Below, piece after piece: positions 2,764 to 3,813 of a stretch of 8,952 bases of DNA (the stretch's first letter is position 1; each line of letters opens with the position of its first letter). The notes below the pieces were generated by a model. It was given only the letters and a program-made list of their open reading frames with translations. It did no database searches and had not been told where the DNA came from. Source of the stretch: a virus (Duplodnaviria > Heunggongvirae > Uroviricota > Caudoviricetes); IMG/VR virus record IMGVR_UViG_2627854008_000013; one strand, given 5' to 3'. The translations under genes were made by a program, and so were the position numbers.

Positions 2764-3813
2764 TCAAACGATTAAATCCTGAACTTCCCTGACTGTCTGC
2801 TCAAAACGTCCGGTCTCCAGTTCAACGCCAATCGCACGACGCCCGAGCGCCAGTGCCGCTTTTACCGTTGAACCTGAGCCCATAAAAAAATCTGCAACCT
2901 GGTCTCCCGGACGACTGCTCGCGTTGATTATCTGCTGCAACATTTCTGCCGGTTTTTCGCACGGATGTTTCCCTGGATAGTACTGCACCGGTTTATACGT
3001 CCACACATCGGTGTACGGCACCTGCACCGTCACACCGAAATACCTCCGCAAATTTTTATATTCACTCAGCAGTTCCATATACTGCCGGCTCAGCTCACTG
3101 TATGTGCTGACCAGTTGGTAATGGGACTTTTCCAGTTCTCTCCGCTGATGTTTCTCTTCTGCCACCCGGGCAAACAGCGACTGTAATTTCAGATAATCGC
3201 TTTCGTTCGGTAGCTGCCACTGACTGGCACTGAACCAGTGCGACACCATGTTTTTCTTTCCTGTGGCATCTGCAATCTGTTTTGCCGTTATCCCCAGGGC
3301 AGCTCGCGCATCACGAAAGTAAGCAATCAGCGGGGCCATCACATGCTGTTTCAGTACCCTGCCCTTCGCCGCATACCCGGCATCTTTCGGACGATACGGC
3401 CCCTGATAATGTTCCGCGAACAGAATGCGCTCTGTGGCGGGGAAATACGCCCGCAGGCTTTCCTTGTTGCATCCGTTCCAGCGTCCGGACGGCTTCGCCC
3501 AGATAATATGGTTCAGCACACTGAAGCGTTCACGCATCATGATTTCGATATCAGATGCCAGGCGATGACCACAGAACAGGTAAAGACTTCCGGCAGGTTT
3601 CAGCACCCGCCAGAACTGCGCCAGACACTGGTCCAGCCACTTCAGGTAATCATCGTCGCCCTTCCACTGGTTATCCCAGCCCTCAGGCTTCACTTTAAAG
3701 TACGGCGGGTCCGTGACTATCAGGTCAACAGAATTTTCGGGTAACGACCGGATAAATTCCAGGCAGTCGGCGTTGATTAACTCACAACTGGATATTTTTA
3801 CAGTATTAAGCAT
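2764..3813 (-). CDS. DNA methyltransferase, beta-class amino-MTase (N6-adenine or N4-cytosine), 349 aa, no cognate restriction gene in window
   Basis: Motif IV DPPY at residues 35-38 (LIVTDPPYF) and motif I FxGxG near the C-terminus (DFFMGSGST, about 309-316), an order typical of beta-class N6/N4 methyltransferases. ATG at 3811-3813. Confidence 0.85.
   Translation of the reverse strand: MLNTVKISSCELINADCLEFIRSLPENSVDLIVTDPPYFKVKPEGWDNQWKGDDDYLKWLDQCLAQFWRVLKPAGSLYLFCGHRLASDIEIMMRERFSVLNHIIWAKPSGRWNGCNKESLRAYFPATERILFAEHYQGPYRPKDAGYAAKGRVLKQHVMAPLIAYFRDARAALGITAKQIADATGKKNMVSHWFSASQWQLPNESDYLKLQSLFARVAEEKHQRRELEKSHYQLVSTYSELSRQYMELLSEYKNLRRYFGVTVQVPYTDVWTYKPVQYYPGKHPCEKPAEMLQQIINASSRPGDQVADFFMGSGSTVKAALALGRRAIGVELETGRFEQTVREVQDLIV

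Follow-up and report, generated by a model that had tools for sequence, protein, structure and literature searches.

An M.EcoGII-type adenine methyltransferase gene, preceded by a conserved structured leader RNA, in a Shigella prophage remnant

The subject of this report is a methyltransferase gene on the minus strand of an 8,952-nucleotide stretch of tailed-phage DNA (IMG/VR record IMGVR_UViG_2627854008_000013; Caudoviricetes), the whole of which is referred to below as the window. The gene, at 2764..3813 (-), is intact, starts with ATG and encodes a protein of 349 aa; its open reading frame (ORF), its Pfam match, its homology and a structural model together mark it as specifying a non-specific N6-adenine methyltransferase of the M.EcoGII type. 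The best explanation of all the evidence taken together, and one that is very probably right, is that such an enzyme would be expressed late and in dependence on the antiterminator Q, would serve in anti-restriction, and would be subject to a translational gate formed by a structured leader RNA immediately ahead of the gene. To judge from its sequence, the gene is a near-identical copy of one already characterised, and it must be counted as known, since it is present in about a third of complete E. coli genomes (1978 of 5426); M.EcoGII is also a commercial product in wide use for the footprinting of chromatin and RNA, and the gene in itself brings no novelty. The scientific interest lies in the leader RNA, together with a small ORF that is sometimes present upstream of it; computation marks the leader as conserved, structured and peculiar to this gene family. 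The leader is more conserved than the protein and has two exclusive, covarying folds, and as such it provides an experimental handle on how a phage silences and then releases an enzyme that can methylate nearly any adenine.

The protein is a DNA methyltransferase of the beta class. Its sole Pfam match is to PF01555 (N6_N4_Mtase), over residues 29-340 with E=1.4e-43 and 149.8 bits (cut-off 26.7), and PHROGs and PADLOC likewise label it a DNA or type II methyltransferase. The motifs follow the order of the beta class, with DPPY (motif IV) at 35-38 towards the N-terminus, the recognition region in the middle and FMGSG (motif I) at 310-314 towards the C-terminus, and D35 and G312 are invariant across 91 homologs. 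A preliminary description of the gene had read it in just this way, as a beta-class enzyme with DPPY at 35-38, FxGxG at about 309-315 and about 270 residues (271 when counted) between the two. A different identity that was considered, namely an MT-A70 prophage rRNA methyltransferase of the M.EcoPA8orf6770P type (PMC10810198), is ruled out, the motif here being DPPY and not DPPW, the locus being another one, and PF01555 being the only family matched.

The same description had also suggested a low-specificity enzyme of the M.EcoGII type, while holding that specificity could not be read from the sequence. The suggestion stands and the reservation does not, in that near-identity to a characterised enzyme makes the specificity in effect readable. 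Aligned by BLASTP with the M.EcoGII-type reference P0121, the protein is identical at 338 of 349 positions (97%) over its full length and without gaps, and the two share one 90%-identity cluster. P0121 is AFS73976.1 and AKE83937.1 (UniRef A0A0E0Y1D5_ECO1C), i.e. E. coli O104:H4 2011C-3493, the origin of AFS73976.1 being taken from the UniProt mnemonic ECO1C. The M.EcoGII sequence itself was that in Table S1 of the SUPREM paper (PMC11551740), with three apparent machine-reading glitches corrected; before correction it agrees with the present protein in 334 of 350 alignment columns, while an exact-match lookup showed that the corrected sequence exists verbatim in the O104:H4 records (P0121). The allele in the window is 100% identical to a Shigella boydii protein (ACD06338.1, B2U4W0_SHIB3). 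More widely, homologs amount to 2805 cluster representatives at E<=1e-10, or 297 clusters at 50% identity and E<=1e-30.

M.EcoGII is a 349-aa beta-class enzyme from a prophage of E. coli O104:H4 C227-11 that methylates adenine in any context, accepts double-stranded DNA, single-stranded DNA and RNA as substrates, is not expressed in the lysogen and is harmful to the cell when expressed; phage 1720a-02 has been named as the carrier of a very similar enzyme (Murray et al. 2018, PMC5778455). The two proteins are colinear and have the same layout of DPPY, helical insert and FxGxG, and both are prophage-borne and orphan; the difference is that the host of M.EcoGII is E. coli O104:H4, whereas here it is Shigella and the setting a prophage remnant. 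From the near-identity, this allele is predicted to methylate adenine in any context as well. Eleven substitutions lead from it to M.EcoGII (A148E, V153A, S191P, R225G, S230P, Y232H, S242N, Q244K, N297S, Q305L and L321M), all of which leave DPPY and FxGxG untouched, and Q179 is shared. It might be supposed that these changes restore or create a recognition motif and make of this allele a sequence-specific orphan methyltransferase, given that 8 of the 11 differences lie in the helical insert with the proposed recognition domain and that the NCBI name is ‘site-specific DNA-methyltransferase’. This is, however, very improbable: the label used by NCBI is generic for the family, REBASE-based typing treats M.EcoGI, at 95%, as equivalent where the present identity is 97%, homologs at 92-94% are listed as non-specific, and far more divergent reconstructed ancestors stay non-specific (PMC11551740).

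An AlphaFold2 model of the methyltransferase, built on the 91 homologs, has a mean pLDDT of 93.5, a pTM of 0.88 and a beta-class fold, in which a Rossmann core (about 1-135 and 260-349) is split by a 110-residue helical insert (147-255). The modelled helices of the insert (147-158, 160-173, 177-184, 187-194, 204-223 and 238-255) agree with the published model of M.EcoGII, where a four-helix recognition domain adjoins a charged two-helix linker (PMC11551740). The charged, heptad-like stretch that had been remarked on earlier is present as a charged stretch, at 216-258, but in the model it comprises the last part of helix 204-223, the loop 224-237 and helix 238-255, and is therefore not a continuous coiled coil. 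The nearest solved structures in a Foldseek search (probability 1.00, E ~1e-17 to 1e-15) are CcrM (6pbd), M.BceJIV (8urk), M.RsrI (1eg2) and M.MboIIA (1g60), while phmmer against solved beta-class enzymes gives E ~1e-26 to 1e-14; both methods match the core only, at 14-23% identity (CcrM, M.BceJIV, M.RsrI, M.MboIIA, M1.HpyAVI and M.PvuII). The first four of these have the catalytic Rossmann core and the motif order in common with the present enzyme, but they are sequence-specific, only 18-23% identical and lack any counterpart of the insert 147-255, the query-normalised TM-score being ~0.5.

The methyltransferase is an orphan. As had been stated at the outset, no restriction endonuclease gene accompanies it: among the window proteins none matches a PADLOC restriction-endonuclease model, only the two methyltransferases of the window matching MTase_II, and no endonuclease Pfam family occurs among the genes called in the 10-kb flanks of four Shigella loci that carry the identical protein. 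The sole nuclease-like gene nearby, for a DUF968/HNHc_6 protein common in lambdoid phages (4775-5770 (-), with a weak HNHc_6 nuclease-domain match, E=4.5e-6), persists in relatives in which the methyltransferase is deleted, and is therefore not a cognate endonuclease.

The slot that the gene was said to occupy, between Q and tRNA genes, was correctly recognised. The late antiterminator gene Q (PF06530, E=1.6e-52) lies upstream at 4377..4772 (-), the called gene running from ATG 4757 and encoding 126 aa, and a cluster of three tRNA genes, Met(CAT), Arg(TCG) and Arg(TCT), lies directly downstream at 2465..2714 (-) (ARAGORN; Rfam tRNA). To describe the content of this slot as accessory cargo is less apt, as small ORF, terminator, leader RNA and methyltransferase travel as one conserved cassette, with a spacing that is fixed across Q alleles and genera. 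The small ORF, at 3964..4161 (-), encodes 65 aa from ATG 4161 and belongs to phrog_331 (E=3.3e-43); it is called as a gene in Shigella loci and named ‘TrmB family’ in some records, the window copy having a weak TrmB match (E=0.0065). Its product is probably, from these matches, a helix-turn-helix protein (a single-sequence AlphaFold2 model has a pLDDT of 65, too low for a fold search). Of 80 IMG/VR loci, 76 have it at a constant distance upstream of the methyltransferase (three of the four exceptions having no upstream flank), and this spacing is kept despite a different Q allele and a DUF968 protein only ~50% identical; it is found, too, in phages of Escherichia, Shigella, Klebsiella, Citrobacter, Hafnia, Providencia and Morganella, with divergence of the small ORF to 48-57% identity. 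In a locus scan across genomes, made with an alignment of 14 closer methyltransferase sequences and a single genome for each species, 56 of the 78 loci with upstream flank have it, and in the other 22 unrelated ORFs take its place.

Two terminator-like hairpins separate Q from the methyltransferase. One is an intrinsic terminator at 4281..4308 (-), ~70-90 nt downstream of Q and in the tR' position (hairpin 4308-4288, AAACCCGCCGCGAGCGGGTTT then TTTTATGG), which would act as tR'; the annotations of SfV and Ayreon place its equivalent behind Q. The other, an intrinsic-terminator-like hairpin with a T-run at 3951..3977 (-) (stem 3977-3960, then TTTTTTATTT), lies over the stop of the small ORF and immediately 5' of the leader, and in the alignment most loci have a hairpin and U-tract ahead of the leader. 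A scan of the coding strand for the sigma-70 consensus gave no candidate for PR' or for a methyltransferase promoter. These hairpins, together with the lack of a sigma-70 consensus on the strand, fit the published silence of the gene in the lysogen. The small RNA StxS, which lies between PR' and tR' in Stx phages, was considered as an identity for 4281-4376 but cannot be equated with it, since it belongs with another Q clade (144-aa Q, 258-nt leader).

Related phages arrange these genes as follows. The functional phages SfV, Ayreon and yong2 have Q, then a terminator, the small ORF, the methyltransferase, another terminator and the holin gene, while in Stx2 phage 1720a-02 (a 93.1% nucleotide match) it is Q, small ORF, methyltransferase, stx2. 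M.EcoGI and the homologs in 1720a-02, phiP27, SfV (orf48), cdtI, mEp460 and N15 (gp52) belong to this family too (57-93% identity) and share both the place in the late operon and the leader RNA; they differ in having other Q alleles and other downstream cargo (stx2, lysis genes). In intact lambdoid phages, then, the methyltransferase is the late operon's first large gene, with Q/tR' on one side and the lysis genes (or tRNA and stx genes) on the other, a position that would leave it silent in the lysogen. In lambdoid Stx phages PR' is constitutive, and is halted at tR' unless Q acts (PMC7547250). Behind two terminators, the gene would be transcribed only once Q antiterminates after induction.

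Made at that stage, the enzyme would methylate replicating phage DNA before packaging, and so could weaken restriction of types I, II and III in the host infected next; an anti-restriction role for enzymes of the M.EcoGII type is the proposal of earlier authors (PMC5778455, PMC12707154). It is improbable that the natural substrate is not phage DNA but host or phage RNA, modified during lytic growth so as to alter translation, although M.EcoGII does methylate RNA in vitro and in cells (PMC5778455, PMC11551740), and there is a parallel in another methyltransferase of Stx prophages, M.EcoPA8orf6770P, which has a small nucleic-acid-binding (winged-helix) partner encoded just upstream and prefers 16S rRNA (PMC10810198), just as a small, probable helix-turn-helix ORF lies upstream here. 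That enzyme, however, belongs to another family, being an MT-A70 protein with DPPW, encoded elsewhere in the phage and only weakly active alone, whereas M.EcoGII needs no partner and is ~90-fold faster on DNA than on RNA (initial velocities 11.12 vs 0.12, PMC11551740 Table S3), and the small ORF is absent from 22 of the 78 loci.

The leader RNA extends over 3811..3961 (-) and ends at the methyltransferase ATG, with a conserved core at ~3814-3951 of ~140 nt; it scores 135 bits (E ~1e-30) with the covariance model R1 described here. In the 22 loci without the small ORF, ~150 nt before the ATG was recognisable in all three reading frames, which pointed to conservation at the nucleotide level. An initial alignment of 43 non-redundant sequences was folded with RNAalifold, and R1 was then built. 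Each locus has a single strong R1 match, lying on the coding strand and always ending at the methyltransferase ATG, with scores of 56-173 bits in 62 genome loci from Enterobacteriaceae, Erwiniaceae, Pectobacteriaceae, Yersiniaceae and Providencia, and of 154, 155, 79 and 43 bits in phages SfV, Ayreon, yong2 and N15, respectively. A DNA pattern made from the leader alone retrieved 62 R1-confirmed elements in IMG/VR, at the terminal ATG of which an M.EcoGII-family ORF opens in 59; the other three are one internally deleted methyltransferase gene and two weak partial matches. From E. coli to phage N15, the leader occurs only in front of M.EcoGII-family methyltransferases. In loci where the methyltransferase is <85% identical to that of the window, the identity of the leader to the window copy averages 77%, vs 67% for coding DNA, 70% for protein and 35% for four-fold degenerate sites. 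By its conservation, its compensatory changes and its fixed position before one gene family, the leader qualifies as a structured cis-regulatory RNA in the generic sense. It is apparently undescribed: in Rfam 15 no family reaches the gathering threshold in 3780-4000 (the best sub-threshold match being P26, at 24 bits vs 36 and on the opposite strand), and a search of the literature for exact leader strings gave nothing relevant.

The consensus fold obtained by RNAalifold from the 43 sequences is a multi-helix one, with compensatory changes in 14 of 30 pairs. In the model-based alignment 95.2% of cells pair, vs 28-40% when partners are slid by 1-3 columns, and pairs changed on both sides number 18, a value that none of 500 shuffles attains (7.5 +/- 1.7 in the shuffles, 4-8 with the partners slid). 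Most of the covariation signal comes from hairpin P2 (GGCUGGUGGGUG / CACCCACCAGCC, 12 bp in the window; 3906..3936 (-)), in which 9 of 12 pairs change on both sides with pairing kept. P2 is closed by P1, formed by AUGGGC (3937-3942) with GCUCAU (3896-3901) (-). Further 3', the stem-loop P4/P5 (AGGCCCAC-UGCUUU ... AAAGCA-..UGAGCCU; 3837..3871 (-)) is 91-97% paired and has five pairs with compensatory changes. Finally, the start-proximal strand (…GGUUUAAUGAUC, bases -13 to -1; 3814..3826 (-)) pairs with 3878-3889 in what is here termed the closed fold; this long-range helix, GGUCAC-AAGC with GCUU...UGAUC (the last bases being -5 to -1), also has compensatory changes. The closed fold has 172 G-U pairs as against 42 A-C pairs, an excess that speaks for an RNA with the sequence of the coding strand.

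An alternative helix, P3 (UCUGCU with AGCAAA in the window; 3876..3904 (-)), is mutually exclusive, as UUCGCU/AGCGAA, with both P1 and the long-range start-proximal helix. It too covaries: in alignment A5, which was not fitted to P3, pair 63-89 is CG in 26 sequences, UA in 14, AU in 10 and UG in 6, and another P3 pair is UA in 51 and CG in 6, and 89% of cells pair, vs 23-44% with the partner slid. A comparison of energies with the pairs imposed favours the closed over the open P3 fold in 53 of 62 sequences (mean difference 4.5 kcal/mol), and in some sequences the closed fold is essentially the minimum-energy one; the unconstrained fold of the window leader has z = -3.1 vs shuffles. No Shine-Dalgarno-like run is found in the sequence at the usual distance from the methyltransferase ATG.

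The leader would thus fold with the bases directly before the AUG paired, and the mutually exclusive helix would free those bases, so that translation of the toxic enzyme is probably gated too. On this modelling the leader is probably a translational gate on the enzyme, closed by default. To go further, and regard it as a new class of cis-regulatory RNA dedicated to M.EcoGII-family methyltransferases and working as a two-state gate opened by a phage-timed signal, is a tentative step, to which rather less than an even chance should be given. Candidates for whatever might open such a gate are the co-encoded small helix-turn-helix protein (by analogy with Com and mom of phage Mu), the methyltransferase itself, and S-adenosylmethionine or S-adenosylhomocysteine (SAM/SAH). 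A gate of this kind may explain the difficulty of expressing the native gene, and could provide a compact regulatory part.

Alternatively, the element might not work as a translational switch: it might act at the level of DNA, as an operator or a late promoter, or attenuate transcription, or yield a separate small RNA by processing of the 5' untranslated region. Thus P2, as a perfect inverted repeat, could be a binding site for a dimer, with half-sites changing together; a terminator lies directly 5' of the element; and N15 has an annotated promoter just upstream of its leader copy. Even so, this is somewhat unlikely, because several separate helices covary and not one palindrome, coding-strand G-U pairs outnumber A-C pairs four to one, the element always ends exactly at the ATG with its 3' strand forming the initiation region, and no internal hairpin is followed by a U-tract. 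Two further identities were rejected. As a coding mini-ORF (AUG GGC GGC UGG UGG GUG..., ‘MGGWWVL...’) the leader fails in that most sequences stop in frame at codon 8 while others run for 18-31 codons, and in that substitutions compensate across hairpin arms and not at third codon positions; as a hammerhead-like or other known ribozyme or riboswitch it fails because its CUGAU and GAAA segments do not come in a fitting order and Rfam has no match for it.

A number of points must be set against the account of a late, Q-dependent, anti-restriction enzyme with a translational gate. The role in anti-restriction is a proposal from the literature, and heavily methylated plasmid DNA even transformed E. 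coli 4-5 orders of magnitude worse (PMC5778455). The substitutions relative to M.EcoGII fall mostly in the recognition-domain/linker region (148, 153, 191, 225, 230, 232, 242 and 244) and could in principle alter substrate handling. As regards expression, the consensus scan did not locate the late promoter, and the remnant is without the early promoters that would drive Q. As regards the leader, the compensatory changes seen in the start-proximal helix are owed mostly to a single clade (Providencia), and the alignment that shows them was fitted to that structure; changes in P1 are one-sided only (G-U/G-C); P3 contains 42 C-A mismatches and is therefore weakened; and the minimum-energy fold of the window's own leader departs from the consensus in its 3' part.

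For the gate, the closest functional analogy is with phage Mu, where the mom gene is preceded by a small ORF (com) and by an mRNA structure that occludes its translation start. There is no relation of sequence or fold, and the comparison is an analogy: Com has a zinc finger, while the product of the small ORF here resembles a helix-turn-helix protein, and this ORF is dispensable in 28% of loci. Another parallel is the D12-methyl RNA motif, which lies upstream of DNA methyltransferase genes and is a candidate cis-regulatory RNA. It resembles the present leader as a conserved RNA structure 5' of a DNA adenine methyltransferase gene, but the methyltransferases are of another class and the taxa are others, and no Rfam family, D12-methyl included if it is in release 15, reaches threshold. 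Mom and M.EcoGII have been compared elsewhere (PMC12707154).

Some individual leader copies call for comment. In Xenorhabdus and Photorhabdus (loci L138-L164) there are only weak R1 matches, ~95 nt before the ATG, and the small ORF lies closer; the leader is apparently a shortened version there (a P2-like hairpin and a short 3' segment), and may be a minimal form of the element. In Trabulsiella odontotermitis a second, partial match (31 bits, E ~7e-5; L096 3016-3098) lies ~800 nt upstream of the main copy. In N15 (NC_001901.1; L285 2001-2235) the annotated start of gene 52 is 234 nt downstream of the start given by protein homology and the end of the leader; the annotation is probably wrong, and the leader would serve to correct such start-codon annotations. 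Nearly all leaders have a Dam site, GATC, at positions -6 to -3 relative to the ATG (3814-3820 in the window), which pairs in the closed fold with upstream GGUC/GAUC (3885-3889); the same remnant encodes a phage Dam-family methyltransferase, whose homologs have been assigned GATC specificity.

It was said originally that the phage carries two orphan methyltransferases. Both genes are real, the second being of the phage Dam type (6987..7640 (-), 217 aa; PF05869 E=1.1e-45, TIGR01712 E=1.7e-76, PADLOC MTase_II), but the carrier is not a phage: it is a ~10-kb prophage remnant between insertion sequence (IS) elements. The identical protein recurs in at least 33 blocks of Shigella assemblies, and in the four Shigella loci with 10-kb flanks the phage genes form a ~10-kb island between IS elements, beside host genes, with no integrase, repressor, lysis or structural genes or endonuclease families among its called genes. 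Window positions 1-8292 are 100% identical to one of these loci (L004), and positions 8291-8952 are the neighbouring IS3 element, which is ~1 kb closer than in L004, so that the window carries an IS-adjacent deletion. The cassette in the window is intact but stranded in a Shigella remnant unable to make particles, and is therefore most likely silent here.

This raises the question of whether the gene is now an inert relic, intact by chance or recent descent, never expressed because the remnant would be beyond induction after the loss of its early promoters, and serving neither host nor phage. The state of the prophage and the further ~1-kb deletion lend weight to this, as do the many truncated database entries and the close E. 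coli prophage relatives in which the small ORF is gone and the methyltransferase is down to a 297-nt fragment (e.g. E. coli SY033, L002 4245-4541). It is quite possible, if on balance doubtful, since nothing is broken in the ORF, the leader, the small ORF, Q or either terminator, and the protein is identical across so many Shigella assemblies. In any case it concerns present use and not the encoded product, and is compatible with the explanation preferred here, of an anti-restriction enzyme expressed late and gated by its leader. More generally, prophage copies of the methyltransferase frequently carry truncations, internal deletions or frameshifts (L187 and many database entries among them), and such frequent decay is consistent with selection against a toxic gene in lysogens.

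The remaining features of the window may be described briefly. On the minus strand, starting from the transposase of the IS3 family (8299-8952 (-)), the order is PerC-like ORF, phage Dam, RusA, KilA-N, DUF968/HNHc_6, Q, terminator, small ORF, terminator, methyltransferase; downstream follow tRNA-Met, two tRNA-Arg, a terminator, STnc100, DUF1737 and a NanS-p-like esterase. No stx gene is present among the window genes. The small RNA STnc100 (a full-length Rfam match at 2185-2389 (-), 139.5 bits vs a gathering score of 47) has its own terminator and lies between the tRNA cluster and DUF1737, where relatives carry stx2. At the other end, the IS3-family element abuts the PerC-like gene, the missing ~1 kb being part of an HTH_36 replication-type gene (L004 4527-5521), and the 221-aa ORF at 7640-8305 is a read-in extension of the 162-aa PerC-like gene.

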